Assembly (NCBI GenBank): GCA_045636045.1
Contig: JAZTWT010000016.1
Span: forward strand, 15,258 to 79,257
DNA: 64,000 bases
DNA from: Candidatus Enterousia sp.
Lineage (GTDB): Bacteria; Pseudomonadota; Alphaproteobacteria; Rs-D84
Direction: 5' to 3'
Position numbers and translations under genes: made by a program. Under the pieces are notes generated by a model. The model saw only the letters and a program-made list of their open reading frames with translations. It was not told the DNA's origin and ran no database searches. Below are positions 22,483 through 57,454 of the stretch, piece by piece; positions within the stretch are counted from its first letter, which is position 1; each line of letters opens with the position of its first letter.

Positions 22483-23679
22483 ATGTCCCAACAAAAGATG
22501 TCGCGTGATTTGTGGTTGTTAATTATCTTTGGTGCGTTTCGTACCATATCAGACCTGTTTATGGGGACTTTTTTTGTGTCGTATATTATGCATATGGCAA
22601 CGAACGAGATTACATCGATTTCGATGTATAAACTGTTTGAATATACGGCAACATGTGCAGGGTTCTTCTTATTTGCAAACTGGGTCAAGCGATATAACAA
22701 GGTTGCGGTATTCGGACTAAGCATGTTGCCAAAAATTGCGGTTTTGTTGGCAATAATATTGCTGGGGGGCAGGGCGGTTGAATATGTTGTTCCGATGGGT
22801 TTGATGTATGGGGTCGGTGCGGCGATGTATCATCTGCCGCGACACGCGATGACGGCGGACAAGACAAATGCGCGCAGCGTTGGGTGTTTTGTGGGAACAA
22901 AAAATGCGATTGGGTATCTGGTAAAAATTATTGCGCCTGTTATCCTTGGTTGTTTTATTGATACAGGGTCGTATTCTGATGTTGCATTTGTTTTATTGTT
23001 ATTCACATTTATCGAACTTGGGTTGGTTTTTTTCTTATCCCCGTCCAGGCATCGTTCGTCTGACAAAATAGATTTTATTGGGTTTTATCATTGTATGATG
23101 CGTTTTCCTGTGGTGCGCAGAATGTTTCTTATGGAAATTCTGCGTGGGTTTGGTTTAGGATTGTTGGGCACAGTGATAACGATGTATACTGTTTATATAT
23201 TCCATACTGATTTAAATCTTGGGATATTAACTACGGTATTCTCGCTATGTTCTGTGGCGACATGCTGGGCGCTGCGCTATATTCATCAGAATATGACATA
23301 TCGTATTATTTTAATGATGTGTATTTTATTAGTATTCTTGTCCATGTCGCTGTTTGTCTATAAAACTACGCCGGTTTCATTCTTGATTTATAATTTTATT
23401 TACGCAACAGCGATAGTTTTTTTGGATCAGATAAACAATATTGGCATATATAAATTATCTCGTTCGCGTTGTATAACGAATAATACACGCATAGAATACT
23501 TTGTTTTTCGGGATTTTGCGTTGTTTATCGGTCGATGGATTGGATTTACAGGCCTGATGTATATTGGTGTATTTGGTGGTTATGCCTGGCTGCGTTGGTA
23601 TTTGGTGTTAATCAGTATGGCGTTAATTTTGTGGGGTGGGGCAAATCGAATACTGTTTAAGCGTGTGGACAAGAAATAA
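22483..23679 (+). CDS. MFS-like polytopic membrane transporter
   Basis: 398 aa with about 12 predicted hydrophobic helices. Confidence 0.5.
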   Translation: MSQQKMSRDLWLLIIFGAFRTISDLFMGTFFVSYIMHMATNEITSISMYKLFEYTATCAGFFLFANWVKRYNKVAVFGLSMLPKIAVLLAIILLGGRAVEYVVPMGLMYGVGAAMYHLPRHAMTADKTNARSVGCFVGTKNAIGYLVKIIAPVILGCFIDTGSYSDVAFVLLLFTFIELGLVFFLSPSRHRSSDKIDFIGFYHCMMRFPVVRRMFLMEILRGFGLGLLGTVITMYTVYIFHTDLNLGILTTVFSLCSVATCWALRYIHQNMTYRIILMMCILLVFLSMSLFVYKTTPVSFLIYNFIYATAIVFLDQINNIGIYKLSRSRCITNNTRIEYFVFRDFALFIGRWIGFTGLMYIGVFGGYAWLRWYLVLISMALILWGGANRILFKRVDKK

Positions 23680-23714: not shown

Positions 23715-24749
23715 TTATCGCATCTTCAATGCGTTTTTTATTATTTCTTGTTCAACAATATTACCCGTCATCAGCGGCACTTTTTCATTTGGATTTTTAT
23801 CGTGTTCGGCTTCGGAACCGTCGTATATTTTGTTGCACAGATGCGCTTTTTGTGAACCTAATGCACCGCGATTTGGATGTTCGTGATCAATAAAGTGAAC
23901 AAATTCGTGTGCAAAGGATGCATTTGCGTGCCATAATGTTGTTAGCGATTGCCACAGGTCGCTATGTCTTGTTGCGGACCATTCGCGCAGTTTATTTAGG
24001 TTATGTATTATATACGGGATGCTGTGACCGTTTGCATCTGCTTTTGTTCTGCTGCATACCCCCAGTAAATTTTCTGGCGCTTTTTCCAGGATGTCCCATG
24101 ATTCAACAAATGATACCCATGGTGCATCACCCGGCAAATTCAGTTCTTGCATCATATCGTCTGCGATTTTCTGAAAACACAGGCTGTATGACAGTGTGTC
24201 AGCGTCAAATACTAAGTATTTTTGCTGTTCTACATTTTTGCTTAACACCCTTAACGCAGCGCCCGCAATTTCTTGTGCGCATACCTCTGCGGTTGGTATA
24301 TTTGCGCGGATGTATTCTTTTACCTGTTCTACACTTTTGTTTGCAATTTGTTTTTTACCCAGGTTTTTATCAAATGTTGAAAAATCGCCCTTAAAGTAAA
24401 ATAAATCTGGGTCTGCTACTAAATCCAGTATTGGCATATTTCGTGGTCTGTGTGCATCGATTTTTAATGCGTATTCGCTTCGTCTAATAAATTCTTCCAG
24501 ACCCCATATTGAAATCATAGATTGTATTAATCTGGGTAATTTCTCTAATTGTTGGCGTCTGATTGCACTTATATTTACGCCATTGGTCATACTGACGCGT
24601 CCAATCAGGGCAATAAAACCGCGTAATAAATTGGTCAGTTCACGCAAAGTACCAGCATCTATTGCCAATTCATTTTTATTGGCAAATTTGCGCACTTGTT
24701 CGTATCGCTTTAGATTGCGCATATCTATAACATATTGATGCGCATTCAT
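23715..24749 (-). CDS. hypothetical protein with C-terminal HExxH zincin motif
   Basis: FAHEFVHFIDHEH near the C-terminus; no other family was recognised. The start is uncertain (the ORF is open to 24824). Confidence 0.5.
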   Translation of the reverse strand: MNAHQYVIDMRNLKRYEQVRKFANKNELAIDAGTLRELTNLLRGFIALIGRVSMTNGVNISAIRRQQLEKLPRLIQSMISIWGLEEFIRRSEYALKIDAHRPRNMPILDLVADPDLFYFKGDFSTFDKNLGKKQIANKSVEQVKEYIRANIPTAEVCAQEIAGAALRVLSKNVEQQKYLVFDADTLSYSLCFQKIADDMMQELNLPGDAPWVSFVESWDILEKAPENLLGVCSRTKADANGHSIPYIIHNLNKLREWSATRHSDLWQSLTTLWHANASFAHEFVHFIDHEHPNRGALGSQKAHLCNKIYDGSEAEHDKNPNEKVPLMTGNIVEQEIIKNALKMR

Positions 24750-24861
24750 AAAATTCTTTTTTTTAACGGCCACAACCACTCCTTTGTAAAGGCATTTTTG
24801 AATAATATAGACAAAACAGAACAAATGTCAACCCTAAAGAGTAAAAAGAATAATATTCTTA

Positions 24862-24908: not shown

Positions 24909-25841
24909 TTATTTGGTGCGTACACGCATTTGTTTTCTTAATTGTTGTAAACGCATCAGTTGTTTTAACTGTTCCATGTTAACCTTGATAACCCTGTTTG
25001 TCTTTCCTGTATTATTGACTATCTTTGCCGGCAGGGCCAGGGTTTGTGGCTTTATTGCAGGTTTTGACTTGCGTGGCGCCTGTTTTGCCGGTTTGTTTGT
25101 TGGGCGACGATTATTTGTCGGATTATTTTTTGCATGTGACTTCATAATAATGTACGCCATATTTATCTGCTGAATCATGCGTGTGGCCGCATCTATATTG
25201 TTCGGATTCTTATCTGGGTGCCACCGCAGACATAATTTACGATACGCACGCTTGATTTGATTGTGTGACGCATTCATATTCACGCCCAAGATTTTTGCAG
25301 CATCCTGCACAGACATTTCTGGTGTTTTATTTATCGTGTGTCCAGAATTCTTTTGCTGCTTCTCTTGATTGTTCTTGGCTTGTTGGCGTGCCTTGTACTC
25401 TTGTTCGGCGCGTTTCTGCTGATTGCGAATCCATTCGTTAAACTTGCGCCATGCCTGTCTGCGTTTTTCGCGCAGTTGCGCGGCGCGTTTTTGTTGATGC
25501 TGCAACCATTCAGCAAATTTTTGTTGCGCCTGACTGTCTTGTTGTATCGCAGTTTTTTTCTGTTTTACATCGCCTGGCTGCTTATCAGTTGTCTTGTCGG
25601 TAATGTTTTTTGTGTTTGGCGTATTTGTCTGACTATTACCTGGAACCACGTGTACAATCAATAATATCACGATTGGATTCGCGGTCATTGGTTGAACTAA
25701 ATCAGTTGTTGGCTTTTTACCTGATTTTGCTTTTTGTGCATTGTAATGCCATATCAGCATTAGTGCGGCCAGTTGTAATTTTGGGATTTTGTTTGCTGTC
25801 TGCATTTGTTGCGACGACTGTTCTTGGTTTTGTTTCTGCAT
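24909..25841 (-). CDS. J-domain (DnaJ-like) protein with Q/K-rich regions
   Basis: ILGVNMNASHNQIKRAYRKLCLRWHPDKNP contains the HPD motif. The rest is low-complexity Q/K/N-rich sequence. The start is at MQKQNQ, preceded by an AGAGGTG RBS. Confidence 0.65.
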   Translation of the reverse strand: MQKQNQEQSSQQMQTANKIPKLQLAALMLIWHYNAQKAKSGKKPTTDLVQPMTANPIVILLIVHVVPGNSQTNTPNTKNITDKTTDKQPGDVKQKKTAIQQDSQAQQKFAEWLQHQQKRAAQLREKRRQAWRKFNEWIRNQQKRAEQEYKARQQAKNNQEKQQKNSGHTINKTPEMSVQDAAKILGVNMNASHNQIKRAYRKLCLRWHPDKNPNNIDAATRMIQQINMAYIIMKSHAKNNPTNNRRPTNKPAKQAPRKSKPAIKPQTLALPAKIVNNTGKTNRVIKVNMEQLKQLMRLQQLRKQMRVRTK

Positions 25842-25951
25842 ATTACACCTCTTGATTAATGCTTTTGTGTATATGATACAGAACTTTCCGTATCCTGCAT
25901 TAGTATCACATATTTCAGGATTAGTCAAATAAATAATATCATGATATTTTC

Positions 25952-26305
25952 CTACCCGAATATCAGTAAGTGCAGCAAACTCATAAATATTTCCATCGCA
26001 ACAGGGGCAAACAGATATGCCAGTGCAACAAAGTACTTTTTCATGAAGGCTTTATATATCCCAAAACACACAAATGCCAATTGTGCAATTGTATATATTA
26101 CCAACAAGACCGCATAATATATAGTGCGTATTTCTAAGCCCATAAATTCGATATATTTACAACATTCGCCATCTAGTATATATGGGTATGGAGCCATAGT
26201 AAAAACATATCGTAATTCAGAGATTGGAACTAGTATTGCTATAAAAGATAAACATAATAGCAATACTTGTCCCCAAATACATAAAATTGATTTAGCTGTT
26301 TTCAT
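25952..26305 (-). CDS. small polytopic membrane protein, candidate immunity protein
   Basis: 117 aa with about 4 TM helices. Its ATG overlaps the toxin stop codon (TGATG). Confidence 0.55.
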   Translation of the reverse strand: MKTAKSILCIWGQVLLLCLSFIAILVPISELRYVFTMAPYPYILDGECCKYIEFMGLEIRTIYYAVLLVIYTIAQLAFVCFGIYKAFMKKYFVALAYLFAPVAMEIFMSLLHLLIFG

Positions 26306-27438
26306 CAATAGTATTTTACATTGATGATTAAATCATGTCCATTCTTTTCAAACCATTGTGTAAATTCATCAATATGATGTGTTAAATCAATACAGCCTGC
26401 CGAACCAGGTTCTGCCCCACCATGTACACTAAAACCACTTCGATCATATGTGTTGGTTTCTTTTGATGGCTCTAACCACACACGTGATTCTCCCCATGAA
26501 TCCGTTCCTCCTCTCCAAGTTCCAAATCCAACTGCCGAACGCAACCGATTGTCCCACGTAATATCCTTATAAAATTGCAATTCGCTCTGCCTTGCAACGT
26601 ATGTACCTTCGGGTATGGTACCCTTGTCTTTTATAGATTGGTATTTGGGGCTTTGATAGCCCTTGGTGCCCGATACCGCATTCCATGACATAATAGGTTT
26701 GTCATTTTCATACAGCGTAAATTTCTTACCATCAAATACCGCATATTGCCCAGGTTTTACATTCACCGGTTTTTCAAAGGTTAGTTTATTTATTTTATTG
26801 TCGGGTTGTGATTCTGATTCCTTTTCTGGTTTTTGGCCTTTATAAACCTTGCTGTCTATTTTCTTGCCAGCCTCATTCAGTGTTGCTTCTTCAACCCAAC
26901 AGCGACAGTTTGGATGAACGGGACAAACTGGTATATCTTCTTTGTTTTCATAGACTGTTCCATCGTTCCCCGAACATTCATCGCATGTATTTTCTCCATG
27001 CTCGCTGTGCCATATCCATATCTTGGGCGCGATTTTGAATTCTGGAATATTCAAATCAAAGGTTTCCAGACTACGCTTTGATACCTGACCGCCCGGCATT
27101 AAAACTTTGACCGGTATCGGCTCGCCAGGAACGACGTATTCTTCAATGTTAAATTCAAAACCAATTGTTTCAAAGTAGTCCTCAAAATCTTCCATAACTG
27201 CTTCGGTGGCGTCATCTTTTTCTGCTTCAAAGTCTGCATCTATTTCTGCTTGCGCAACATTAAATTGTTTTAATGTCATATCATATTCTGGGCGCATCAT
27301 ACGACCTGTGGCATCAAACTGTACTGTGCCGGGATACAGGATATTCATATACTTGGTTGCGCGTTTATATGTTTCGCTGTTTTTATCGCCATATTCGGGC
27401 GACGATATCAGTTCTTGTAAAAATTTTGGTGTTATCAT
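26305..27438 (-). CDS. polymorphic toxin: MuF-type N-terminal fragment + Tlde1/DUF2778-like L,D-transpeptidase-fold C-terminal domain
   Basis: CDECSGNDGTVYENKEDIPVCPVHPNCRCWVEE matches the C..C..dG..-P.HPNCRC end of Mu F/SPP1 gp7. The C-terminus GTIPEGTYVA...GFSVHGGAEPGSAGCIDL matches the YkuD/Tlde1 H...GSxGCI catalytic motif. There is a GGAGA RBS before the ATG at 27438. Confidence 0.7.
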   Translation of the reverse strand: MITPKFLQELISSPEYGDKNSETYKRATKYMNILYPGTVQFDATGRMMRPEYDMTLKQFNVAQAEIDADFEAEKDDATEAVMEDFEDYFETIGFEFNIEEYVVPGEPIPVKVLMPGGQVSKRSLETFDLNIPEFKIAPKIWIWHSEHGENTCDECSGNDGTVYENKEDIPVCPVHPNCRCWVEEATLNEAGKKIDSKVYKGQKPEKESESQPDNKINKLTFEKPVNVKPGQYAVFDGKKFTLYENDKPIMSWNAVSGTKGYQSPKYQSIKDKGTIPEGTYVARQSELQFYKDITWDNRLRSAVGFGTWRGGTDSWGESRVWLEPSKETNTYDRSGFSVHGGAEPGSAGCIDLTHHIDEFTQWFEKNGHDLIINVKYY

Positions 27439-27451
27439 TGTTTTTCTCCAT

Positions 27452-27501
27452 AAAAAAACACCCGCGGTTGCGGGCAATAAAAAAAGACGACCTGTGTCGT
27501 C
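27452..27501 (-). terminator. two tandem intrinsic terminators in the toxin leader
   Basis: On the - strand: gacgac-acag-gtcgtc + T7, then gcccgc-aacc-gcggg + T7, ending about 14 nt before the toxin RBS. Confidence 0.6.
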
Positions 27502-27515
27502 CGCTGAACGTGCGT

Positions 27516-27544
27516 ATTATATCACAAAATGTGCAAAAAATCAA
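27516..27544 (-). promoter_or_regulatory. strong sigma70 promoter (extended -10) facing the toxin gene
   Basis: On the - strand: TTGATT, 17 nt (with TGa), TATAAT. Confidence 0.5.
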
Positions 27545-27583: not shown

Positions 27584-27608
27584 TAAAAAATCCGCCCAAA
27601 TGGACGGA
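27584..27608 (-). terminator. intrinsic terminator after tRNA-Glu
   Basis: tccgtcc/ggcgga bulged hairpin plus T6 on the - strand. Confidence 0.5.
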
Positions 27609-27618: not shown

Positions 27619-27694
27619 TGGCAGCCCCAACCGGATTCGAACCGGTGTTCTCGCCTTGAAAGGGCGGTGTCCTAGGCCTCTAGACGATGGGGCC
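27619..27694 (-). tRNA. tRNA-Glu (UUC)
   Basis: Reverse complement GGCCCCATCGTCTAGAGGCCTAGGACACCGCCCTTTCAAGGCGAGAACACCGGTTCGAATCCGGTTGGGGCTGCCA. It folds as a cloverleaf with a GTTCGAATC T-loop, anticodon loop CTTTCAA and an encoded CCA. Confidence 0.9.
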
Positions 27695-46642: not shown

Positions 46643-46733
46643 GGAGATGTCGCATAGTTGGTCTAGTGCGCCACATTGGAAATGTGGTATACTCGCAAGG
46701 GTATCAAGGGTTCGAATCCCTTCATCTCCGCCA
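46643..46733 (+). tRNA. tRNA-Ser (GGA)
   Basis: GGAGATG...CATCTCCGCCA acceptor stem, anticodon loop TTGGAAA, long variable arm, GTTCGAATC T-loop. Confidence 0.9.
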
Positions 46734-48188
46734 GTTTTTACTTTCAGTATAATTCCCCAATATATTAAATGGAAAATTCAAGTCATAACAAAGGGTTTTG
46801 CCCTTTAATTTGAGAGTTCGGAAGATTGATTTTAGCAATGTGCGTTTTGGATCAACTTCCGAACTTTTTATGAAATTGTCGGCCACGTGTTGTGCCGCAT
46901 GAAAGAATTTCACGATTGTATCATTGACTGTATCATCTGCGGCCCGGTGGACACGTTGTTTGCCATATAAAATATCCAGTTGTGTGCCCAGTTCTGCGTT
47001 CTTGGCATTGTATGTAGTGTCGTCTATCTTGCCGTCCAGATACATATTCAATAGATTATCTTTGCGTTTTTCAGCGGTGGCGATATTGCGTGAGATTTCC
47101 GCCATGATGCGTTTGTTATATTCTGCTTCCAATTCTTTGGCGGATTTCAGATAATCTGCCACACCATCAACCATTTCACGTGATATCTGTAATTGTTCCA
47201 GTATTTGAACAATTTGGCCGGTGACAATATCTTCGTTCACAGCAACGTGTTTGCCGGATTCATCCCAGGTCATCAAATAATTGTATTTGTTCTTTTTGCG
47301 TTCAGTGGTTACAACCCGGCCAGACCAATAATCTGTTATCAATCCACGATATAGATACTGAATACTGCCCCACCGGGTAGATTTGTGTGAATTTCGTCCA
47401 TTCAGGATATCTTGGCATTTATCCCATGTTGCTTTGTCCAGTAATCGTGGATGCCGGTGTTCAAATGTGAATTCGCCCCATTTGGCGGTGCCAATGTAGA
47501 ATGGGTTTTGTATCATACGGTGTAAATATGCCTTGGACAATTTTTGTCCGTTCTTGGAACGAATGCCTAAATCGTATGCGTGGTCAACCAGTAATGATAA
47601 TGACATGCAACCACGTGAATAATCCACAAACAATTGCCGCACCAAGTCGGCATTGTCATCAAATATGATTTCTGACCGGTTGTCTGGTGTGCGGATGTTT
47701 TTATATCCCAATGGTGCCATGCCGGGAAATTCGCCTTTGCCAACCTTGGCCACGACACTGCGGCGGACATTTTCCTTGAAATGTAGCGAATATGCTTCGG
47801 CCATTAAAACGCCCTGATGCCACATTAAAATGTCGGATGAACTGGATTTGTCAGAAACAACGATGTTTTCACGTGCAAAATGGATTTCAAGTTGACCAGA
47901 TTTGCGATATTTTTCCAACAATGGGATTTCTTGGAATGAACGTTGGGCACGATCAATAGTGTCAATCAACAATGCTGCATTGTTTTTTACACAGAATTTT
48001 ATGCATTCAAGAAATTTGCGGCGGTCACCGACTGTGCTGGATTCTATTAGTACCCGTTCGTCCAGTATTGTCATTTGCCGGCGGTTCGCATAATCTTTCA
48101 GGCGTGATACCTGCGCTGGCAGAGATAATTCTCTGTCTTGCTGTGCGGAACTGATCCGGGCCAAAATCACGCAGTTTTTGTTTGACAT
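46722..48188 (-). CDS. large serine recombinase (phage integrase)
   Basis: N-terminal resolvase domain CVILARISSAQQDRELSLPAQ, a recombinase domain (PLGYKN, IQNPFYIG) and a C-terminal coiled coil. The stop codon lies inside the last 12 nt of tRNA-Ser. Confidence 0.85.
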   Translation of the reverse strand: MSNKNCVILARISSAQQDRELSLPAQVSRLKDYANRRQMTILDERVLIESSTVGDRRKFLECIKFCVKNNAALLIDTIDRAQRSFQEIPLLEKYRKSGQLEIHFARENIVVSDKSSSSDILMWHQGVLMAEAYSLHFKENVRRSVVAKVGKGEFPGMAPLGYKNIRTPDNRSEIIFDDNADLVRQLFVDYSRGCMSLSLLVDHAYDLGIRSKNGQKLSKAYLHRMIQNPFYIGTAKWGEFTFEHRHPRLLDKATWDKCQDILNGRNSHKSTRWGSIQYLYRGLITDYWSGRVVTTERKKNKYNYLMTWDESGKHVAVNEDIVTGQIVQILEQLQISREMVDGVADYLKSAKELEAEYNKRIMAEISRNIATAEKRKDNLLNMYLDGKIDDTTYNAKNAELGTQLDILYGKQRVHRAADDTVNDTIVKFFHAAQHVADNFIKSSEVDPKRTLLKSIFRTLKLKGKTLCYDLNFPFNILGNYTESKNWRR

Positions 48189-48329
48189 CGTTTTCCAATA
48201 ACATTGCAGAACGCAAGAAATCCACAAAGCCACAGATGCCTGTGTTCATTGCGGCATCGGTCAGCACAAAGCCCTTTTCGGCTGCCAATTGTGAAAAAAT
48301 GCGTTCTATTTTTGCCATTTGTACAGGTT

Positions 48330-48749
48330 TTATTTTAATTTTGCAAGTATTTGTTTGTTTTGATGTATGTTGCCTATGATTTTGCCCGATACATTATCTG
48401 ATGAAATCTTTGCGTGAACTTGTTTTAATTCCCAACCATTCCCATACTTGTCACATACATACCATCCTATCAGTTCCGATTGGTCGTTCCATTCAACTGT
48501 GCCACAATACTTAAAACTGCCTTCATCAACGGTTGCGGTGCCGGTAAGAGTATCACCTTCATAAATCAATATATCGCCGGAATCAAAAAGGCCAGTGCAG
48601 TATTCCCAGCATAGGTCTGCGGCATCGTATTGCTGGGCATATGCTGCCAATGCCAATCGTGATTCTTGGATTGCCAAGTTGAAATATCGATATGAGTTTG
48701 TTTGATGGTTCCAGATGCGGAATTTCAACCGATTATTATCGTGTGTCAT
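48330..48749 (-). CDS. YopX-family phage protein
   Basis: KFRIWNHQ start, GDILIYEGD, and the C-terminal IIGNIHQN signature. Confidence 0.7.
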   Translation of the reverse strand: MTHDNNRLKFRIWNHQTNSYRYFNLAIQESRLALAAYAQQYDAADLCWEYCTGLFDSGDILIYEGDTLTGTATVDEGSFKYCGTVEWNDQSELIGWYVCDKYGNGWELKQVHAKISSDNVSGKIIGNIHQNKQILAKLK

Positions 48750-49016
48750 TGTTTATCCTGTTGCGCTGGTTCGTAATATTTAATGTTAAAAAACCCTGTT
48801 TTGACGGTTGTGGTTTTGTCGGTCACGTATAAATCAACCACGCCATCGGTTGCAGAAACATAGATTCTGTCGCCACGTTCAACAAGATTTTAAGAATCCA
48901 TCGGCCGTTATTTCGGCCAATGTTTGCTTGTCGTTGTATAACCAGCCGGTTATTCCGTTGGCAAACCAGATTACAGATAGGTGCTGGTTGCGGAAGTTAG
49001 AATTGTTATGTGGCAT
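48746..49016 (-). pseudogene. frameshifted small phage gene
   Basis: A 44-codon ORF (MPHNNSNFRNQHLSVIWFANG...) starts by TAATG coupling at 49016 and stops at 48882. A second frame is open from about 48890 (VERGDRIYVSATDGVVDLYV...) and ends by ATGA coupling onto yopX. Confidence 0.45.
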
Positions 49017-49375
49017 TATTCGTCCTTTTTTGTTGTGTTATAAAGTTGAGAGTATGCAAAGAATACGTTTTTACATAAGTAACCAACCAAATACGCCAAT
49101 ATTTCATCTTGGGTTGGGGTAAATACAACGTCACGGTCTGCTAACATATGGTTTGCCAGGTGGACACATTCATGTGAAATAATAGATATGCATTCCGGTT
49201 GCTGGGAGATCCATAAGTGCCATGTTTTTTCTTCGTCTTGCCAAACGCCGGCAAGGGTGTCGGGCGACAAGCCAGCATCTTCTGGCACGTTGTCCTTGTG
49301 TGACTGAACAACAAGATGGCAGTCAAAAATCGGAATGTTAAAATGAAATTCGTTAGATTGTGGTTTTTTTGTCAT
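49016..49375 (-). CDS. small phage protein with HExxH motif
   Basis: 119 aa containing ISHECVHLANH. Confidence 0.45.
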   Translation of the reverse strand: MTKKPQSNEFHFNIPIFDCHLVVQSHKDNVPEDAGLSPDTLAGVWQDEEKTWHLWISQQPECISIISHECVHLANHMLADRDVVFTPTQDEILAYLVGYLCKNVFFAYSQLYNTTKKDE

Positions 49376-49390
49376 GATGTATCCTTTGGA

Positions 49391-49603
49391 TTATCGTGGT
49401 CTGGTTTCAGAATGTGGTAATACGGTGTATAGGCCACATTTGGAACATTGGCGGGTTTGTTTCCCGATTTTCCGGTCAAATTCCCATTGTTTCCAACGAT
49501 GAAAACAGCCGTATGAATATTTGGATGGATCGCTGAATAACATCGTATGCATTCCTAATAGAATGCCGCTGACAAAACATCCGATTCCGATAATCCAATA
49601 CAT
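49391..49603 (-). CDS. small TM + zinc-ribbon phage protein
   Basis: 70 aa with an N-terminal TM helix and CFHRW...CSKCG. Confidence 0.4.
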   Translation of the reverse strand: MYWIIGIGCFVSGILLGMHTMLFSDPSKYSYGCFHRWKQWEFDRKIGKQTRQCSKCGLYTVLPHSETRPR

Positions 49604-49903
49604 TTATTTCCCCTTTGGTTCTTTCCATAGTCCGGCTGCAACAAATGCGTTGCGGTAATTGTTGAATACATAGTTTTCATAATCGGCATCTTCGGGGAAA
49701 CGTTCCGCATCTTTGGCCCATTTTTTGTAGCATTTAGGACAAAACCACCGTTGGCCCAGAACCGGAACAAGATAGCCGTCAAAAGATGCCTTGTTGCATC
49801 GGTCGCAAATACCCATTGGAAGCCCCGGTTCAATGGCAAGTAATTCCGTCAATTTTGCCTGTATAATTAAAAATCCTTGTTTGTGTTTTACCTGATGTGC
49901 CAT
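49604..49903 (-). CDS. zinc-ribbon phage protein
   Basis: 99 aa with CDRC...CPKC. Abuts the downstream gene. Confidence 0.45.
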   Translation of the reverse strand: MAHQVKHKQGFLIIQAKLTELLAIEPGLPMGICDRCNKASFDGYLVPVLGQRWFCPKCYKKWAKDAERFPEDADYENYVFNNYRNAFVAAGLWKEPKGK

Positions 49904-49920
49904 TTTATTTGCCCTTTATG

Positions 49921-50274
49921 TTATTGCAGTAAATCAACGACTTGTTTAATACTTGCTTTTTCGTCATCCGTATCGGCTTTTAATATTTCCATTTTGGAAA
50001 AATCCCCGAATTTTGCTTTTTGTAAATCAGAAACCAAAGATGCACCGATTTTTATCATGCCGTGGTCTTGGTCAAAAAATTCGTTTAATATCTCGTCAAT
50101 GGACATATTTTCTGCATCCCAGCCGCCCAAACAATCTTTGATTTCGTCTTCAATTTCGTCTTGGACAAATGGGTCGTCTAACAACTGCCGCAACTTGCGT
50201 AATTTTTCATTGTATTCGCTAATACAATTATTCAAACATCCAATAATTGAAATAGTCATTGTTCTTTGTGCCAT
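49921..50274 (-). CDS. acidic phage protein
   Basis: 117 aa, D/E-rich (DDPFVQDEIEDEIKD, DAENMSIDEILNEFFDQD). Confidence 0.45.
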   Translation of the reverse strand: MAQRTMTISIIGCLNNCISEYNEKLRKLRQLLDDPFVQDEIEDEIKDCLGGWDAENMSIDEILNEFFDQDHGMIKIGASLVSDLQKAKFGDFSKMEILKADTDDEKASIKQVVDLLQ

Positions 50275-50284
50275 GTTCTATTCC

Positions 50285-50497
50285 TTATGTTCTACGCCAT
50301 CTTTTTTTACAGTCGCCATAATTGTCAAACAATTCATATTCACGACCGCACTTTTTGCATTTACGGTGTGGAATACGCACGTGTTCATATTCATAACCGT
50401 TTGGATAAACCCAAGTGTCAAAATATTTCCACTCGTGTTTGCATTTCGGTTTCATATCTCTATTCCTTATGTTCAACTGGTTACAATTTGTAACCAT
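50285..50497 (-). CDS. zinc-ribbon phage protein
   Basis: 70 aa with CKHEW...CKKCG. Confidence 0.4.
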   Translation of the reverse strand: MVTNCNQLNIRNRDMKPKCKHEWKYFDTWVYPNGYEYEHVRIPHRKCKKCGREYELFDNYGDCKKRWRRT

Positions 50498-50498
50498 C

Positions 50499-50933
50499 TC
50501 AATCCTTATGTTCTTGATTGTTCGGTTTTTCCGAATTGTCGTGGGTTATCTGGGCAAGGGCTTTGCGTGCAAGCAAAACGCTTTTCGGACTAAGCCAATC
50601 TCGTCTATAATCAAAATTTGGGTTGCGTTCTTCTTCTGGGTAGCACCAATCGTCTGTTTTTGCGTATCTTTCCAACGCCTGTTTAGCAATCTGCAAATCC
50701 TTTTCAAGTGCCAGTATTGTGTTGTTTCTTATTTGTTCCCACATTGCGTGGTGTTTTTTGAACTCTTCCAATTCTTCTTTCTTGTCCTGCAAATCACGCT
50801 GGGATTGTATCAGGGCTTGCCATAGTTTTTCGTTGCCACTTAAAAAGCCGTGCTTTCGGCAATACCAAACAACGGCAGTTGCCGCAAATCTTAACTCCTG
50901 TCCACAAAACGGACAAATCATTTCATCACCCAT
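50499..50933 (-). CDS. zinc-ribbon + coiled-coil phage protein
   Basis: 144 aa with CPFCGQ...YCRKHG followed by a helical region. Confidence 0.45.
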   Translation of the reverse strand: MGDEMICPFCGQELRFAATAVVWYCRKHGFLSGNEKLWQALIQSQRDLQDKKEELEEFKKHHAMWEQIRNNTILALEKDLQIAKQALERYAKTDDWCYPEEERNPNFDYRRDWLSPKSVLLARKALAQITHDNSEKPNNQEHKD

Positions 50934-51006
50934 CTTTACGCCTTATGTTTGTATTGTCCGTTTAATTTGCGCCACTTGCGCTGGCGGTTGATACGCATTT
51001 TTTTGT

Positions 51007-51300
51007 TTATTGCAGCACGCAATCGGATAATGCGTTCCGGTGGTGAATACATGGGAAGTTTGAAAGCAATAGTGATTTCATATCTTCCCACAATGCAACG
51101 GCAATCAGCATATCAAAACGTCCAACGCCGCATATCACAATGTACATATCGGCAAGTTCCAACATTTTCTTTTTTGTGTCTGTTTCTGTTTCAAATTCCA
51201 GTCGTTCTTCTTTGAATTTTTCAAGTTGACCGGCCAATGTGGCATCTGGGAATGTCTTTTTGTGCCACTTTTTGATGGTTTTGTTGGTTTCAAATAACAT
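51007..51300 (-). CDS. MazG-like nucleotide pyrophosphohydrolase (phage type)
   Basis: KWHKKTFPDATLAGQLEKFKEERLEFE...ELADMYIV pattern. Confidence 0.5.
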   Translation of the reverse strand: MLFETNKTIKKWHKKTFPDATLAGQLEKFKEERLEFETETDTKKKMLELADMYIVICGVGRFDMLIAVALWEDMKSLLLSNFPCIHHRNALSDCVLQ

Positions 51301-51515
51301 TATTTATTCCCTTGGTTTTGGTTTGGAATAAGAATCATGCCGGCAAATGCAATAAGTGCCATGATGTCAAATGTTGTTTTCAGATCCACAATTCGTGATT
51401 CTGTAATCGCAATGTATGCGAATATCGCAACATAGATAAAGACAACCCAGTTGCAGGCAGCATCAATTACGTCAAGAATGTTTTTGATTATGTATTTTGG
51501 TATTTTGATTTTCAT
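51300..51515 (-). CDS. small membrane phage protein
   Basis: 71 aa with two hydrophobic helices. Confidence 0.4.
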   Translation of the reverse strand: MKIKIPKYIIKNILDVIDAACNWVVFIYVAIFAYIAITESRIVDLKTTFDIMALIAFAGMILIPNQNQGNK

Positions 51516-51725
51516 TTATTCCCCTTTTGGTTGTTTTTTGAAACGGTTCTTGTTTATAAAAACATTGAGTTTTTCAAGACAGTTGGTTGCGGTAGCCAGC
51601 CATTTGGTCAATATGTCACAGATGCACCACAGATAGCATGCGGTGATATAAAGTAATCCGGCCAGCAGTTGTGTGATAAATAGGAATATGGTCTTGAAAA
51701 AATACATAACGTCTGTTGCTTTCAT
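51516..51725 (-). CDS. small membrane phage protein
   Basis: The start at MKATDV sits just after the stop of the upstream gene. Two TM helices. Confidence 0.4.
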   Translation of the reverse strand: MKATDVMYFFKTIFLFITQLLAGLLYITACYLWCICDILTKWLATATNCLEKLNVFINKNRFKKQPKGE

Positions 51726-51726
51726 T

Positions 51727-51999
51727 TTATTTGTCTTTTGTTTCTGGGTGTGTGGATTCTTTGAATTCGTACAGGCATTTTGACCAGTGTTTGCCCACAA
51801 ATTCGGTAATAATCAGTTTTCCGCAGGTGTATCCAAGCCCGGGGAAATACCAACCGCTGGTTTGTAATACCGGCTTGGTTGATGTGTAAGAAATATTTCC
51901 TGCGGTGCCCATGCATAGATATTTTGCATCGCTTGGCAATGCCTGACGTAATGTTTCGGCAGAAATTCCAATTTGTTCAGTTTTTTTGTCTTTTGTCAT
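51727..51999 (-). CDS. hypothetical phage protein
   Basis: 90-aa ORF in the co-directional packed operon. Confidence 0.4.
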   Translation of the reverse strand: MTKDKKTEQIGISAETLRQALPSDAKYLCMGTAGNISYTSTKPVLQTSGWYFPGLGYTCGKLIITEFVGKHWSKCLYEFKESTHPETKDK

Positions 52000-52402
52000 T
52001 TGTGTTTTCCTTTGGTTTATATCTGTTTGGCCAACGTTCGATTAAATATGGTTCAATATCCAATTTCGCTAATTTGTGTTCGCCGACCGAATAGATATTT
52101 TTTTCACTGACATAGAAAGGTAGCCGGCGGCGGATATAATTTTCGTCACAGATTTTGCGTGTTTCTGTGTATAGTGTTGACAGATCTAATTCCTTGATTT
52201 TCTTGTATCGTTGAACAGAAGAAATTCGTTTTGTGATATCTGTTTCTGCATCTTGTTGTGTTGCGTATGGGCCCAAAAAAATGTTGTATTTGAAATCTTC
52301 GTAGTACCACCCTGTTTGCCGCGTGGTTGAATAAACCAGACGGTACAGATGGTTGCCGATGGGCAGATAGTTTTTTGGAAAAACTTTCTTGCCGGTTGCC
52401 AT
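51977..52402 (-). CDS. hypothetical phage protein
   Basis: 141-aa ORF in the operon. Confidence 0.4.
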   Translation of the reverse strand: MATGKKVFPKNYLPIGNHLYRLVYSTTRQTGWYYEDFKYNIFLGPYATQQDAETDITKRISSVQRYKKIKELDLSTLYTETRKICDENYIRRRLPFYVSEKNIYSVGEHKLAKLDIEPYLIERWPNRYKPKENTNDKRQKN

Positions 52403-52406
52403 ACTC

Positions 52407-52868
52407 TTATCCCCCGATATTTAATTTTGCACGGATATTCTTATAGTGTTTATGTGCGGTCATAAGAGAACAATCCATGATTTCTGCAATTTCTTTGGGT
52501 TTAAGTTCCGGGTGTTCGTGCATCAGCCCATAAAAAGGTCGTTCCCATTCAGTCAAACAATCAGGAAATTTTAATATTGGTTCTTCGTTGTCGTCATCTT
52601 CTGCGATATCTTTGTTCATGTCGCATTCGTCTGTATCATCGGTGTGATTTGTTGCAGGGCAATCATCGCATGTGTTATTGCTGGGAATTGTATCTGTTAT
52701 TTCGTGGTTTGTTGGGGATTTGCACGCAAATTCATCTATCAATGCGATTTTAATATCGTCACGCAAAACCCATTCAAGCGTTCTGATTCTTTCTGTTATT
52801 AGATTTACTGGTATGATATTTTTATAACAACGCAGCAGTTCACGTAAAATATCAATTTCGTTTTTCAT
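52407..52868 (-). CDS. phage transcriptional regulator with C-terminal sigma-r4/LuxR-type HTH
   Basis: Starts at MKNEID after an AAAGGGGGA RBS, with an acidic/Cys-rich middle. The C-terminus KPKEIAEIMDCSLMTAHKHYKNIRAKL is HTH-like. Confidence 0.5.
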   Translation of the reverse strand: MKNEIDILRELLRCYKNIIPVNLITERIRTLEWVLRDDIKIALIDEFACKSPTNHEITDTIPSNNTCDDCPATNHTDDTDECDMNKDIAEDDDNEEPILKFPDCLTEWERPFYGLMHEHPELKPKEIAEIMDCSLMTAHKHYKNIRAKLNIGG

Positions 52869-52885
52869 ATATCCCCCTTTGTTAG

Positions 52886-53230
52886 TTATGGATTGACCAA
52901 GATTGAAACTTTTTGTCCGACGGCACATTGTTTGCCATTTTGTGTTGAAATGGTTTTTTTGCAGCATTCCCAGCGGTCGAATGTCTGGTTGTAAATACAG
53001 GTGTCGGCTTTCCGGGGGGCGGATAAGCCAACAATAAGAGCGATAACGCCAATTATGAAACACGCCATAGGTGTGCAACAATATTTGCAACGGTGGTGAC
53101 GTATAGAAATATAATTTGCACGAAATTGATTGGCGAATGAAAAACTGCCAAATATGAAACGTGGTTTCGAGTTGCGATATTTGATGTAATCTTGGATTGT
53201 GTGTATAAGTGCACGAATTGATGTGATCAT
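52886..53230 (-). CDS. first gene of the leftward early operon, membrane protein
   Basis: 114 aa, directly downstream of the predicted PL, with a GGGAGAAAAAG RBS. Confidence 0.4.
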   Translation of the reverse strand: MITSIRALIHTIQDYIKYRNSKPRFIFGSFSFANQFRANYISIRHHRCKYCCTPMACFIIGVIALIVGLSAPRKADTCIYNQTFDRWECCKKTISTQNGKQCAVGQKVSILVNP

Positions 53231-53257
53231 GTCTTTTTCTCCCTATTGTTTGACATC

Positions 53258-53311
53258 ATTGTAGAATAAAATATACAAGATTTCAAGAAAAAAGTAGAAT
53301 ATAATATACAA
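53258..53311. promoter_or_regulatory. left operator/promoter region (PL plus divergent repressor promoter)
   Basis: Operators TTGTAgaataaaataTACAA (53259-53278) and AAGTAgaatataataTACAA (53292-53311). The - strand promoter is TTGAAA (53281-86), 17 nt, TACAAT (53258-63). A + strand TATAAT lies at 53300-05. Confidence 0.6.
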
Positions 53312-53358
53312 GAAAGAAAGGAGTAAATGATGTAAAATAAAAAAAAGGTAAAAACAAC

Positions 53359-53697
53359 ATGCTGGACAATAAAGCGATAGAAGAAAAAATCAGGGCACTT
53401 GGAAAAAAAGCAGGATTGCATACAGATATGGCGATATGCGAAAAATGCAATTTTTCCACCCGTACGCAACTGGGTAAAATGGGGCAACTTAAAACCGCTC
53501 CACAATTGGATACATTGGAAAAGTTTGCCAAGGGATTGGGTGTACAGATTGAAGATTTGATTTATGACAGAACAGATGCGGATATTGAGTTGTCAAAAAT
53601 ATTGCCGCAATTGTCAGAATATGAAAAGACAGAAGTGGTTGTTTATGCCAAAATGATTATCAAAGAAAAAAACGCAAAAACCCAGAAAGCCGCATAA
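53359..53697 (+). CDS. XRE/cI-type phage repressor
   Basis: HTH segment AGLHTDMAICEKCNFSTRTQLGKM...LDTLEKFAKGLGVQIEDLI. Divergent from the early-left operon. Confidence 0.7.
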   Translation: MLDNKAIEEKIRALGKKAGLHTDMAICEKCNFSTRTQLGKMGQLKTAPQLDTLEKFAKGLGVQIEDLIYDRTDADIELSKILPQLSEYEKTEVVVYAKMIIKEKNAKTQKAA

Positions 53698-53801
53698 TTT
53701 CTCAAATTGGCAGCATTGTCTATGTGAATTTTGGTCTGATTATTGTTGGGCTTGCGGTTTCAACGGCCTGTGCCGTACTAGCGATATAAAGGAAGTGGAA
53801 C

Positions 53802-54002
53802 GTGGCAACAGATAAGATATTGGATGGGGTTCGGCAGGAGTGCATGAGAGTTCAAGAACAGATTGATCGGGCCGAAGGCGATTTGACCGGTTCTATCTGG
53901 GATATGGAACGAAGAATGAGATACATGTTGCAGCGTATTAAAATACAGGGATTTTTTAATACGGTATTGCTGATGCTTCTGTTGTTGTTGATGTTCTTTT
54001 AA
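53802..54002 (+). CDS. small tail-anchored membrane protein in the immunity region
   Basis: 66 aa with a GTG start after a GGAAGTGGAA RBS and a C-terminal TM helix GFFNTVLLMLLLLLMFF. Confidence 0.4.
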   Translation: MATDKILDGVRQECMRVQEQIDRAEGDLTGSIWDMERRMRYMLQRIKIQGFFNTVLLMLLLLLMFF

Positions 54003-54059
54003 TGTTTTTTTTGTGATTTTTGCGCTGGTTAAACACCTGCGTTTTTATTTTTGTATTTT

Positions 54060-54115
54060 ATGCAGAATACAATATACAAAATTTTATTGACTATTTGTAG
54101 ATTATAATATACAAT
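54060..54115 (+). promoter_or_regulatory. right operator/promoter region (PR)
   Basis: TTGACT (54087-92), 17 nt, TACAAT (54110-15). Operator TTGTAgattataataTACAA lies at 54095-54114, with a degenerate copy at 54060-54079. Confidence 0.6.
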
Positions 54116-54141
54116 GCTTTTGTAAAACAATAGGGAATCAC

Positions 54142-54588
54142 ATGTCAGAATCTGCTGCAAAAATTCGTGTAAAGAAGAAATTCCAGGCATTGTCGGCCGG
54201 CCGGCCATGTGCGGTATGCCAGACAATGTATAATCGCAATATGTGTCGTTTTGTGAAACAGGCCACATGTCGGCATCATATTATTCATCGTGGCAGCCAA
54301 TTTTTATTCGGGGATTGGCGTAATGGCATAAATGTATGCCAGGAATGTCACAATAAGATTCATGCACAGGCAGGATTTGCCAATTGGGTTCACGATCATG
54401 TGGTTGGCCCACAGGTAATGGATTTACTGTATGAATTGGCCAGAACTGATTTTAAGCAGCATTTATTGATACATGGCATCACAGCAGACGAATTTTGGAA
54501 GATTCAAGAAAAAAACTTGGATGAGCAACTGGGGCATTCGGTCAGATACGGATGCTTTGGGGCGGATATAAGCGATATCCCATTTTAA
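54142..54588 (+). CDS. HNH endonuclease
   Basis: CAVC...HHIIHRG...CQECHNKIH (HNH with zinc-binding cysteines). Confidence 0.7.
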   Translation: MSESAAKIRVKKKFQALSAGRPCAVCQTMYNRNMCRFVKQATCRHHIIHRGSQFLFGDWRNGINVCQECHNKIHAQAGFANWVHDHVVGPQVMDLLYELARTDFKQHLLIHGITADEFWKIQEKNLDEQLGHSVRYGCFGADISDIPF

Positions 54589-54613
54589 CAATCAACTGAA
54601 AAGGAAGGAACAA

Positions 54614-54826
54614 ATGCAAAATACTGATTTTATTGAGTTGGCGTTTTCATACCATGTGCCGCAATCCGGCCAGACGGAAAAATACGAACAGATCCGAGCA
54701 AAGGCGAAAGAATTTGCATATTTGATTGAGCAATTATGCCCACAGTCGGCAGAACAGATGTTGGCATGGCGTAAATTGCAGGAAGCAATGATGTATGCAA
54801 ACGCAAGTATTGCGATGCACGGATAG
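54614..54826 (+). CDS. small helical-hairpin phage protein (possible Acb2/Tad1-hairpin-like)
   Basis: 70 aa. The pattern P..GQ...YEQIRAKAKEFAYLIEQLCPQSAEQMLAWRKLQEAMMYANASIA matches a widespread phage family ending ...LEEA.MWAN.AI. Confidence 0.4.
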   Translation: MQNTDFIELAFSYHVPQSGQTEKYEQIRAKAKEFAYLIEQLCPQSAEQMLAWRKLQEAMMYANASIAMHG

Positions 54827-55031
54827 GGATTGGCACTTGGCGGTCATTAGCCACCTTTAATCTGCTGACATACCAGTGGTGCCAATAGTATGTCCATTGT
54901 CGGTGCGGAAAGGTTGAAACAGTCAAAGTGACAATTGCTTGCCCAAGCAACCACAGGCGGGTATCCGTTAAATGGTCTGAAATCCGGGTCAATGATCAGC
55001 CGACAACAATATAAAACCAAAGGAAAGGAAT

Positions 55032-55205
55032 ATGAAACGTTTTTTAAGATTATTTTCCACCACAGCATTGGTTCGTGAATTGCTGACACGTGAAGATATT
55101 AAAAGTCAGGAAATCCCACAGGGTAATCGGATGCAGATGCGTGTGCCGGGTGGATCAATTGTGATTATTGTTCGTAAATGTTCCATGGGTGACAAAAGTG
55201 AATAA
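55032..55205 (+). CDS. hypothetical small phage protein (below the ORF-track cutoff)
   Basis: 57-aa ORF MKRFLRLFSTTALVRELL... after an AAAGGAAAGGAA RBS. Confidence 0.4.
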   Translation: MKRFLRLFSTTALVRELLTREDIKSQEIPQGNRMQMRVPGGSIVIIVRKCSMGDKSE

Positions 55206-55387
55206 ATTATGGCATACGAATTTGGAAAGACCACAAGACGGACGGTGGATATTGATTTTTTATTCCACCACCAAAACGCCAACATTGATACTGGCGCATA
55301 AGTGTGTTGGGGTGTTGGATGGTGCAATATGGGCGTATGTACAAGATTTGTTAAAAGCAGAACTGAAATAAAAGAAAGGGGGGCAGT

Positions 55388-55684
55388 ATGTGCGAATGTT
55401 TGATAATTCAAAAACACAGTGGCCGTATCGTTGACAGAACGTCATCGGTATTAGATGCACGTGAAATCATGCAGCAAATGCACGAAAAAATGCGGTCTTT
55501 GTATGAAATACTGCTAATCCCAAATGGTATTCCGGACAATACAGTTTATGTGGAACTGCGTGCCTGTGGGCATACATACGCATTTGCTGATGTATTGCCC
55601 ATAGACAAAGAAAAATTAAAACAACGTGTGAATTCACACACAGATAATGCAATCAACGATATATACCAAAAGCACATCAGATGA
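55388..55684 (+). CDS. hypothetical phage protein
   Basis: 98-aa ORF with a GGGGGG RBS. Confidence 0.45.
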   Translation: MCECLIIQKHSGRIVDRTSSVLDAREIMQQMHEKMRSLYEILLIPNGIPDNTVYVELRACGHTYAFADVLPIDKEKLKQRVNSHTDNAINDIYQKHIR

Positions 55685-55836
55685 GATCACAGCAAGAAAT
55701 ACAGGCCAGAATTGACGAACTGAAAAACAATGTTGATTTGTTGGGTGCGTATCATCCGCAAAGCAAGATGTTGCTGCGTGAAATTGCGGTGTTGGAATGG
55801 GTGCTGGGTGGTAATGGAATGATTAGGATGTTTTGA
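55681..55836 (+). CDS. hypothetical small phage protein (below the ORF-track cutoff)
   Basis: 51-aa ORF MRSQQEIQARIDELKNN... with ATGA and TGATG overlaps to its neighbours. Confidence 0.4.
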   Translation: MRSQQEIQARIDELKNNVDLLGAYHPQSKMLLREIAVLEWVLGGNGMIRMF

Positions 55837-56048
55837 TGAAACCGAAGAATGTGCGTTTATTTTTGCAGATTTCACCAGAACGTGCCAAACAAGTCGTTGG
55901 TCGTTTATGGGCATGTGGTGAATTATCACGTGAACAATATGAACGTAATATGGAAAAAATAGATCGTTCTGCGCTGGTAGATGAAATGCGAAAAAATGAA
56001 AAAACACAAAAATTATTCGCACAAATCCGCCAGTTTTACAAAAAATAA
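55836..56048 (+). CDS. hypothetical phage protein
   Basis: 70-aa ORF translationally coupled to the upstream gene. Confidence 0.4.
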   Translation: MKPKNVRLFLQISPERAKQVVGRLWACGELSREQYERNMEKIDRSALVDEMRKNEKTQKLFAQIRQFYKK

Positions 56049-56075
56049 GTGAAAAAAATACAACGGGGGGCAGTG

Positions 56076-56741: not shown

Positions 56742-56796
56742 ATCCGGTAACAGATTTTGCAAACAAAAAGATTGAACATAAACAGAGAGAGATACC

Positions 56797-57234: not shown

Positions 57235-57454
57235 ACCAAAATCACGATTTGCACAGCGGATTGGCAAGAAAATGGACTATGTCGCACATAATGTGCGGCG
57301 TGGCCATATTGTGGTCAATGAACGTGGTTTTGTGGATGTTGAACAATCCTTGGACAATCTGCGTAAAATCCGCCGTGGCCGGCCAAAGGTTGGTTTTTGG
57401 GATAAGAAAGTGCGTGTGTTTGTAAAACGAAAAAATTTGAACAGAATCGGGTAA
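57227..57454 (+). CDS. basic small phage protein
   Basis: 75 aa, R/K-rich; last gene before the late leader. Confidence 0.4.
   Translation: MFEPKSRFAQRIGKKMDYVAHNVRRGHIVVNERGFVDVEQSLDNLRKIRRGRPKVGFWDKKVRVFVKRKNLNRIG

Follow-up and report, generated by a model that had tools for sequence, protein, structure and literature searches.

A probable polymorphic toxin-immunity locus of Candidatus Enterousia: a Tlde1-like domain behind a clade-specific N-terminal module with a MuF-type cysteine knuckle

The Tlde1/Tldi1 pairs (Tae5-7/Tai5-7) of Salmonella and other Proteobacteria are among the closest described systems to a two-gene locus analysed here in a 64-kb stretch of DNA from Candidatus Enterousia sp. 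(the window, meaning that stretch in its whole length). The locus consists of a gene for a 377-amino-acid (aa) protein, referred to below as the toxin, and an overlapping open reading frame (ORF) for a 117-aa membrane protein. From a comparison with about 70 related loci, 40 of them in species-representative genomes, we consider it probable that the two genes belong to a lineage-specific polymorphic toxin-immunity system directed at peptidoglycan, of which they form one locus. It shares with the Tlde1/Tldi1 pairs the toxin family, the fold, the spacing of the catalytic His and Cys, the bicistronic layout and a periplasmic site of action, the last being predicted in the present case. It also shares a membrane-bound partner with some of them, since the Tai7 immunity proteins to Tlde1-family toxins have transmembrane segments; an earlier note on this DNA had regarded integral-membrane immunity as unusual, and the reported Tai7 proteins contradict that view. 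The locus differs in that its Tlde1-like domain stands behind a 205-aa N-terminal module that is not from a type VI secretion system (T6SS), in showing no T6SS genes in the window or around the related loci, in the motif SAGC in place of SHGC, in a three-transmembrane immunity family of its own with no Pfam match, and in its reduced-genome alphaproteobacterial host. In the catalogue of Zhang et al. (PMC3482391), L,D-peptidase toxins occur only with type II secretion, T6SS and TcdB-type trafficking, and not in Alphaproteobacteria.

Three other groups of systems resemble the locus in part. MuF toxins also have a MuF-type Cys-rich motif directly before a variable toxin domain and a small downstream immunity ORF, and they too are abundant in gut microbiomes. 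About 96% of the muf genes in bacterial genomes lie in prophages or their remnants, and for 87% a portal or terminase gene is close by; the toxins come mostly from Firmicutes and are mostly nucleases, metallopeptidases, ADP-ribosyltransferases or RelA-like enzymes (Jamet et al. 2017, PMC5576092). Known MuF toxins hold the whole MuF domain, whereas only the terminal knuckle is present here; phage linkage is absent at the ~40 loci examined for it, and all of the cargoes are peptidoglycan enzymes. With CdiA-CT/CdiI, Rhs and MafB the locus shares a constant N-terminus, a C-terminus exchanged at a conserved junction, an adjacent immunity gene and, at related loci, orphan tips downstream, but its protein, at 377 aa, is far shorter and lacks a signal peptide, repeats and a stalk, and the family has a further point of exchange within the catalytic domain. 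Bacteriocins of the colicin M and pesticin type likewise act only on the wall or its precursors and have periplasmic or membrane immunity proteins, and their uptake functions could be served here by the N-terminal part; the present protein differs from them in having no disordered translocation domain, recognisable TonB box, lysis gene or known receptor. The toxin and its evolutionary logic are thus familiar, and what is new lies in the N-terminal module, the regulation and the host setting, including a conserved leader with a promoter and a double terminator and a placement just 3' of varied tRNA genes.

The toxin gene (26305-27438, minus strand) encodes 377 aa from an ATG preceded by GGAG (ribosome-binding site, 27446-27449); a TTG lies in frame at 27477. 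The 117-aa ORF (25952-26305, minus strand) begins at the A of the toxin's stop codon, with TGA at 26307-26305 and ATG at 26305-26303, so that the TGATG overlap described earlier is indeed present. The elements of the locus, all on the minus strand, are as follows.

27619..27694, minus strand: tRNA-Glu(UUC) gene, directly 5' of the toxin gene on the same strand and one border of a variable island (ARAGORN and Rfam)
27591..27608, minus strand: terminator hairpin of the tRNA gene (terminator scan and sequence)
27516..27544, minus strand: sigma-70-type promoter, TTGATT, 17 nucleotides, (TG)TATAAT, with an extended -10 element (10/12 matches in the scan)
27485..27502, minus strand: leader hairpin 1 with T-run, resembling an intrinsic terminator (terminator scan and covariation)
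27459..27476, minus strand: leader hairpin 2 with T-run, a second element resembling an intrinsic terminator, followed by the ribosome-binding site (terminator scan)
26830..27438, minus strand: N-terminal module, toxin aa 1-203, the conserved part of the family, with no signal peptide (AlphaFold mean predicted local distance difference test score, pLDDT, of 82.9 for the domain alone)
26887..27036, minus strand: MuF/gp7-type Cys-rich knuckle, toxin aa 135-184, with WxWHSE, CxxC and HPNCRC (PF04233, PHROG and BFVD)
26785..26829, minus strand: linker, toxin aa 204-218, predicted to be disordered (pLDDT <50), at the recombination junction
26308..26778, minus strand: Tlde1/YkuD-fold domain, toxin aa 221-377, a predicted peptidoglycan L,D-peptidase (Pfam, profile and fold search)
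26308..26481, minus strand: exchangeable Tlde1 tip, toxin aa ~320-377, the class of which fixes which immunity gene comes next
25952..26305, minus strand: candidate immunity gene, 117 aa, three transmembrane segments (TGATG coupling and pairing with the tip class)

The locus is not a product of chance, since the toxin protein has 330 homologues, the named ones from uncultured Alphaproteobacteria, since His339, Cys349 and four N-terminal cysteines are invariant in 76 of these sequences, and since ratios of nonsynonymous to synonymous substitution of 0.15-0.37 for the two genes (0.27-0.37 for the 117-aa gene alone) indicate purifying selection on both. The two motifs from which the earlier note had read a Tlde1-like C-terminal domain, GTIPEGTY and FSVHGGAEPGSAGCIDL, occupy toxin aa 273-280 and 336-352. 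That assignment was borne out by profile searches: Pfam Tlde1_dom (PF10908) matches aa 254-365 with 36.2 bits against a cut-off of 30.1, the YkuD family of Pfam matches the same region with 28.1 bits against a cut-off of 23.4, and a profile built from 76 full-length homologues finds Salmonella Tlde1a (PDB 7UMA) at E = 3e-5. Structure prediction gave the same order. The AlphaFold model of the toxin (mean pLDDT 81.7) has 7UMA as its best PDB match in Foldseek (E = 3.7e-7, target TM-score 0.62), and the leading entries 7uma, 7uo8 and 7uo3 (E = 4e-7 to 1e-6, target TM-score 0.59-0.63) are followed by B. subtilis YkuD, this agreement with the Tlde1 fold being one of Foldseek ranking. His339 (codon 26422-26424, minus strand) and Cys349 (codon 26392-26394, minus strand) align with the catalytic pair of Tlde1a (H121, C131) at the same spacing; loss of either residue in orthologues was looked for, and both are present in 76/76 homologues. 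Its profile matches and its predicted fold place the C-terminal domain in the Tlde1/DUF2778 family.

Comparison of the related loci supports the proposal that this domain is part of a polymorphic-toxin module. The first ~205 aa are 75-88% identical across loci whose C-termini differ, and homology to the lysozyme and GH108 variants stops at about aa 205-210, within the disordered linker. Behind the one N-terminus stand Tlde1 domains with at least four tip subtypes, three types of PF00959 lysozyme, GH108 enzymes with a peptidoglycan-binding tail and, in more distant members, an M23 peptidase; one of the lysozyme types weakly matches Pesticin (19 bits, under the cut-off of 25.8). All of the cargoes found in the family are peptidoglycan enzymes. 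The same clade also uses a shorter N-terminal form of ~110 aa, composed of the first ~45 residues and the knuckle, and a third N-terminal type, each with the same cargoes. By these sequence comparisons the family has the constant N-terminus and the alternative, unrelated toxin domains by which polymorphic toxins are recognised. The earlier description of the module as an orphan did not survive the comparison: the family to which it belongs has several loci in each genome, and single metagenome-assembled genomes (MAGs) of ~0.9 Mb carry two or three. At eight or more loci (L001, L002, L004, L005, L026, L029, L031 and L039), orphan Tlde1 tips that begin at aa ~320-336 (LEPSKETNTY...) lie 3' of the main gene, each with a membrane gene of its own; no such orphan cassette was found in the window. 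Homologous recombination would produce the diversity, acting at a pair of conserved junctions (the linker, ~aa 205, and WLEPSKETNTY, ~aa 320), with the displaced tip and immunity cassettes remaining 3' of the main gene. We conclude that the family is previously undescribed and restricted to the Rs-D84/Enterousia clade.

The case for the 117-aa protein as the immunity partner rests on how the tips and their downstream genes vary together. Its product is hydrophobic with three clear transmembrane segments, which upholds the earlier description of a membrane protein and corrects the estimate of about four segments; Pfam, NCBIfam and PHROGs hold no match to it. Related locus L004 has an orphan immunity gene whose product is 95.7% identical to it, and the class to which it belongs (class A, the window type) is represented by only 14 clusters among 5.8 billion. 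Thirty Tlde1 tips were tabulated, 14 in full-length genes and 16 orphan, and in 29/30 the tip is directly followed by an ORF of ~100-117 aa with three transmembrane segments. Tip class and immunity class correspond one to one across these 30 tips, the membrane protein varying together with the last ~55 residues of the toxin:

tip HHIDEFTQWFEKNGHDLIINVKY (window type), followed by class A, 117 aa: 8 cases
tip NIDNFVALFDYIGNDLIIKVEY, followed by class B, 105 aa: 7/7 cases
tip GQINAFTSWLESTGKDL, followed by class D, 117 aa: 8/8 cases
two further tip types, followed by classes C/C2 and E: 4 and 2 cases

The membrane proteins share a plan of a short basic N-terminus, a first transmembrane segment, a loop of ~25-35 aa with two cysteines that is predicted to be periplasmic, a second segment, a basic turn and a third segment, and some of the classes are detectably related. 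Other cargoes have other partners. The main lysozyme type (C-terminus ...NEWNLYKRGIY) is followed in most loci with downstream sequence by a gene for a 111-aa lipoprotein, and the GH108 toxins by a signal-peptide protein of ~165 aa, which is adjacent in short-form loci and lies farther off in L003; no partner gene was evident for the other two lysozyme types, nor was one recognised for some GH108 variants. This comparative evidence, namely the pairing with tip classes and the orphan cassettes, supports the earlier proposal of a coupled membrane protein as immunity candidate and makes it a strong one: the 117-aa protein is very likely the cognate immunity protein. Separately, a sequence from human faeces labelled 'Bacteriophage sp.' (L081, MT836786.1, 4728-6459) looks bacterial and encodes a 244-aa Tlde1-domain protein, 42% identical to aa 235-376, followed by two multi-transmembrane ORFs; it is a further instance of membrane partners for a Tlde1-type toxin.

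The N-terminal module proved to be a MuF fragment in a narrower sense than the earlier note had proposed. The Cys-rich signature CDECSGNDGTVYENKEDIPVCPVHPNCRCWVEE lies at aa 152-184, and its four cysteines (C152, C155, C178 and C180) are those invariant in the 76 sequences. Pfam Phage_Mu_F (PF04233) matches aa 135-182 with 25.0 bits, under its cut-off of 29.6 and over profile positions 61-111 of 112 only; TIGR01641 matches the same ~50 residues with 22.6 bits, under its cut-off of 39.65. PHROG head-morphogenesis families also match these residues, down to E = 1e-10. Many homologues have a precomputed PF04233 match, and those that pass, such as the L006 protein (36 bits), always do so through the same terminal part. 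A search of the N-terminal profile against 1.84 billion representative proteins returned 21 clusters at E <1e-30, with whole-module matches only at the top of the list, and ~760 further proteins that match at positions 135-200 alone, over the knuckle WxWHSE...CxxC...HPNCRC. Neither a fold search nor a sequence-profile search of the PDB found a match to the module, and a BFVD fold search of its model gave nothing beyond local alignments, 45-66 residues long and with E = 0.08-0.9, to MuF and minor capsid proteins. Among 2.9 million viral contigs the profile found four MuF-knuckle matches and no family member, and tblastn against a phage GenBank set gave two weak matches, both confined to the Tlde1 domain and one of them in the bacterial-looking sequence MT836786. 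The MuF likeness therefore stands for a Cys-rich knuckle of ~50 residues, which probably binds metal, and falls for the remaining ~150 residues, which by profile and model comparison are clade-specific, with no MuF or other structural match. We also rejected membership of the MuF toxin family as defined, which calls for a whole MuF domain and a prophage packaging context; the locus has neither. The module is presumably a device for trafficking, export or targeting.

Expression of the toxin gene appears to be controlled by a leader that is itself a family character. Its arrangement is kept in 32 aligned loci, with TTG of the -35 element and TGnTAtAAT conserved; across these loci hairpin 1 has compensatory changes in 3/6 base pairs and 98.9% of cells paired, and both hairpins together have 97.4%. 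Searched with a covariance model of the leader, 1.16 Mb of related DNA yields 86 copies and the window a single one; the leader has no match in Rfam. Copies precede all three N-terminal toxin types, and also at least 18 stand-alone lysozymes of 164-172 aa that have neither an N-terminal module nor an immunity gene. Transcription would begin at the strong promoter and must then pass two intrinsic terminators; because read-through of both is needed, expression is probably conditional, and we infer that the leader may act as a shared termination/anti-termination switch. The leader was also compared with the late region of the prophage in the window: the layout is similar, but the sequences and the covariance model do not match.

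Several other genes stand under the leader. The stand-alone lysozymes are of T4 type (L050:5215, L051:10025, L061:491, L016:11515 and at least 14 others) and look endolysin-like and co-regulated with the toxins. Two loci (L006:9161-9766, and L033 on the minus strand with an ORF start at ~13830) encode proteins of 185-201 aa with an N-terminal 'SRAWRNNNPGNLEYG' region, a leader on their 5' side and a terminal MuF-type motif, PHPGEEYGCRC (PF04233, 36 bits). Weak matches to the leader model also lie 5' of genes for 188-197-aa proteins that stand among housekeeping genes (L021:5105-5671, L003 at ~16456 and L015 at ~4263); the N-terminal motif of these proteins, LQxRRGT...GMPGE...D.D...LRxHDG, presumably resembles a phage tail-fibre/Mtd N-terminus.

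The toxin gene lies in a variable part of the chromosome. On its 5' side are tRNA-Glu, a META-domain gene, tRNA-Asp and xerC, and on its 3' side the following genes.

24909-25928, minus strand: 339-aa DnaJ-domain protein (Pfam DnaJ, E = 4e-15), its C-terminal J domain preceded by a long low-complexity stretch rich in Q, K and N
23715-24824, minus strand: 369-aa protein with a HEFVH (HExxH) metalloprotease-like motif near its C-terminus, no family match
22483-23679: major facilitator superfamily transporter gene, where synteny with L004 resumes

Since only the tRNA side and the transporter are syntenic with L004, the segment of 23.7-27.6 kb is a variable island. There is no att-type repeat of the 3' end of tRNA-Glu and no integrase within it. 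Relatives of the DnaJ-domain protein occur in the islands of L004 and L038, and a protein with a J domain, placed in the hypervariable island of a partner-dependent bacterium, could serve as an effector; the 369-aa HExxH protein is absent from the 40 related loci. Both genes are counted as island content. A position near a tRNA gene recurs in the family: in 24/26 long-form loci the toxin gene lies ~150-500 bp 3' of a tRNA gene on the same strand, the identity of which differs by locus (Glu, His, Lys and three Ser isoacceptors, at least six in all), and short-form loci are often not beside a tRNA gene.

The window also holds a prophage at tRNA-Ser(GGA), from 46643 to 64000 and running past the window end. 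Besides a DUF6291 protein and an HNH protein, it encodes the following.

46722-48233: serine recombinase
57780-58211: small terminase candidate (TerS)
58189-59634: large terminase
60004-62049: portal (PHROG, E = 6e-96)
62145-63143: scaffold-like protein

Within 57548-57676, just 5' of the packaging genes, a promoter-like site is accompanied by a strong terminator hairpin (57651-57676), in the layout of an anti-terminated late operon. The toxin gene is ~31 kb from the terminase and ~33 kb from the portal. The earlier note was right to place the gene apart from any head module or T6SS locus, there being no terminase or portal within 10 kb at 40 related loci and no T6SS or type IV secretion genes in the window; its statement is incomplete in that terminase and portal genes of a prophage are present in the same window.

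The description of the host as apparently intracellular was not established. The nearest genomes, including the 40 species-representative ones, are gut and rumen MAGs, many of them Candidatus Enterousia. Members of this genus (order Rs-D84) have genomes of 0.75-1.0 Mb, without flagella or respiration, and have been proposed to be partner-dependent (PMC12306168). The window encodes MurJ, an RlpA-like protein, a PBP5-type carboxypeptidase and BamD, from which it follows that the host possesses both peptidoglycan and an outer membrane, and that its own toxin would harm it.

We propose that the toxin is used against neighbouring cells and would act in the periplasm, where, like Tlde1a, it would remove residue four of the peptidoglycan stem peptides or swap it for another, with a weakened wall as the result, and that the Cys-containing periplasmic loop of the membrane protein would block the cognate toxin in the producer and its kin. 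Four points weigh against this proposal. The His of the SHGC motif of Tlde1a (His129), which helps to place D-Ala4 (PMC9638812), is replaced in this toxin family by Ala, Asn or Ile (SAGC in the window), so that its activity may differ from that of Tlde1a. A polytopic protein with a short loop would have to neutralise a soluble enzyme. No immunity gene accompanies the stand-alone lysozymes that share the leader, which means that not every member is one of a toxin-immunity pair. Finally, no secretion genes are linked to the toxin gene, either in the related loci or within the window.

Because all of the cargoes are wall enzymes and all of the immunity proteins are extracytoplasmic, delivery need only reach the periplasm of the neighbour. 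Release followed by bacteriocin-like uptake is a possible but doubtful route, and an undescribed route, perhaps by contact, is to be held with the same reserve; our tentative ranking puts these two before phage-like capsids and places T6SS last. In the capsid model, which we regard as unlikely, the knuckle would bind the portal of a phage or gene transfer agent (GTA), and the toxin would be packed in trans and ejected into the envelope of the next cell. The only characterised role found for the motif family is that in SPP1 gp7/MuF, which binds the portal and travels within the capsid, and the PHROG and BFVD matches are all head-morphogenesis proteins. MuF toxins are thought to travel by this route (PMC6316719, PMC5576092, PMC3482391). 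A promoter followed by terminators resembles the control of phage late operons, with the same layout before TerS in the window prophage, and that prophage has no MuF gene of its own between portal and scaffold. Set against this, just ~50 aa of MuF are retained, a search within 10 kb of the toxin gene at the 40 loci found no terminase, portal or integrase other than the chromosomal XerC, and the family-specific N-terminus did not appear among the viral contigs. The window portal was not found in the representative genomes of other species, its viral matches being distant, and so offers no genus-wide partner; published MuF toxins are located in prophages or their remnants and are mostly cytoplasmic toxins, unlike the wall-directed cargoes here, and in the late region of the prophage the leader model has no match. 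A T6SS effector whose N-terminal module serves as an adaptor or spike-binding domain, fired as is Salmonella Tlde1, would accord with Tlde1/DUF2778 proteins being T6SS effectors, most of them encoded near T6SS genes, and with the usual layout of specialised effectors, an N-terminal loading domain before a C-terminal toxin. We think this distinctly improbable: the window has no T6SS or type IV secretion genes, inspection of the ORFs flanking the related loci revealed no T6SS genes (the targeted flank search covered phage and integrase genes only), the genomes measure 0.75-1.0 Mb, and neither Pfam nor the fold search found any likeness of the toxin to PAAR, VgrG, MIX or Rhs.

Two further explanations do without delivery to other cells. 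The pair could be a lysis cassette, with an endolysin-type enzyme and a holin for autolysis or particle release; T4-type lysozyme, GH108, M23 and L,D-peptidase domains are typical endolysin modules, a three-transmembrane protein of ~105-117 aa resembles a class I holin, the toxin has no signal peptide, and the 18 or more stand-alone lysozymes under the same leader, with no immunity gene, look endolysin-like. The three-transmembrane genes, however, accompany only Tlde1 tips and match their subtype, the partners of lysozyme and GH108 toxins being different, and a holin has no reason to track the subtype of an enzyme. Loci in which as many as four small membrane genes alternate with orphan tips bear a mark of polymorphic toxins, and the conserved 205-aa N-terminal domain is foreign to endolysins. 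We therefore rejected the holin-endolysin cassette on the strict subtype pairing and the multiple membrane genes per array, and judge the lysis explanation as a whole to be very improbable. That the protein is a housekeeping L,D-transpeptidase or carboxypeptidase of the cell wall with a regulatory N-terminal domain is scarcely credible: the YkuD match over its cut-off would fit, but the protein has neither a signal peptide nor a membrane anchor, its best Pfam and fold matches are to the toxin clade Tlde1, the C-terminus is swapped with unrelated hydrolases and linked to variable small genes and orphan cassettes, and the gene lies within a variable island.

Taken as a polymorphic toxin-immunity locus, the finding bears on several questions. 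Polymorphic toxins are classified by their N-terminal trafficking domains, and the present one, for which no known secretion system is a fit, is conserved and occurs in several copies in bacteria whose free genomes rank among the smallest in the gut. The Cys-rich end of MuF can exist apart from phages, as a hinge before exchangeable toxins. The five or more specificity classes of Tlde1 tips and three-transmembrane proteins are a natural experiment on how a membrane protein neutralises a periplasmic enzyme, and the shared leader offers a handle on when wall enzymes are deployed in uncultured hosts, be they competitors, parasites or predators of other gut bacteria. A further proposal, which we rate as rather unlikely, is that the knuckle module marks a delivery route new for Gram-negative bacteria, by trans-loaded phage- or GTA-like capsids or by another export path specific to partner-dependent bacteria with genomes under 1 Mb, switched by the leader together with the stand-alone lysozymes. 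If that were true, Enterousia, with its minimal genome, would reserve several loci for breaking through the walls of its neighbours, whether kin competitors or its partner.

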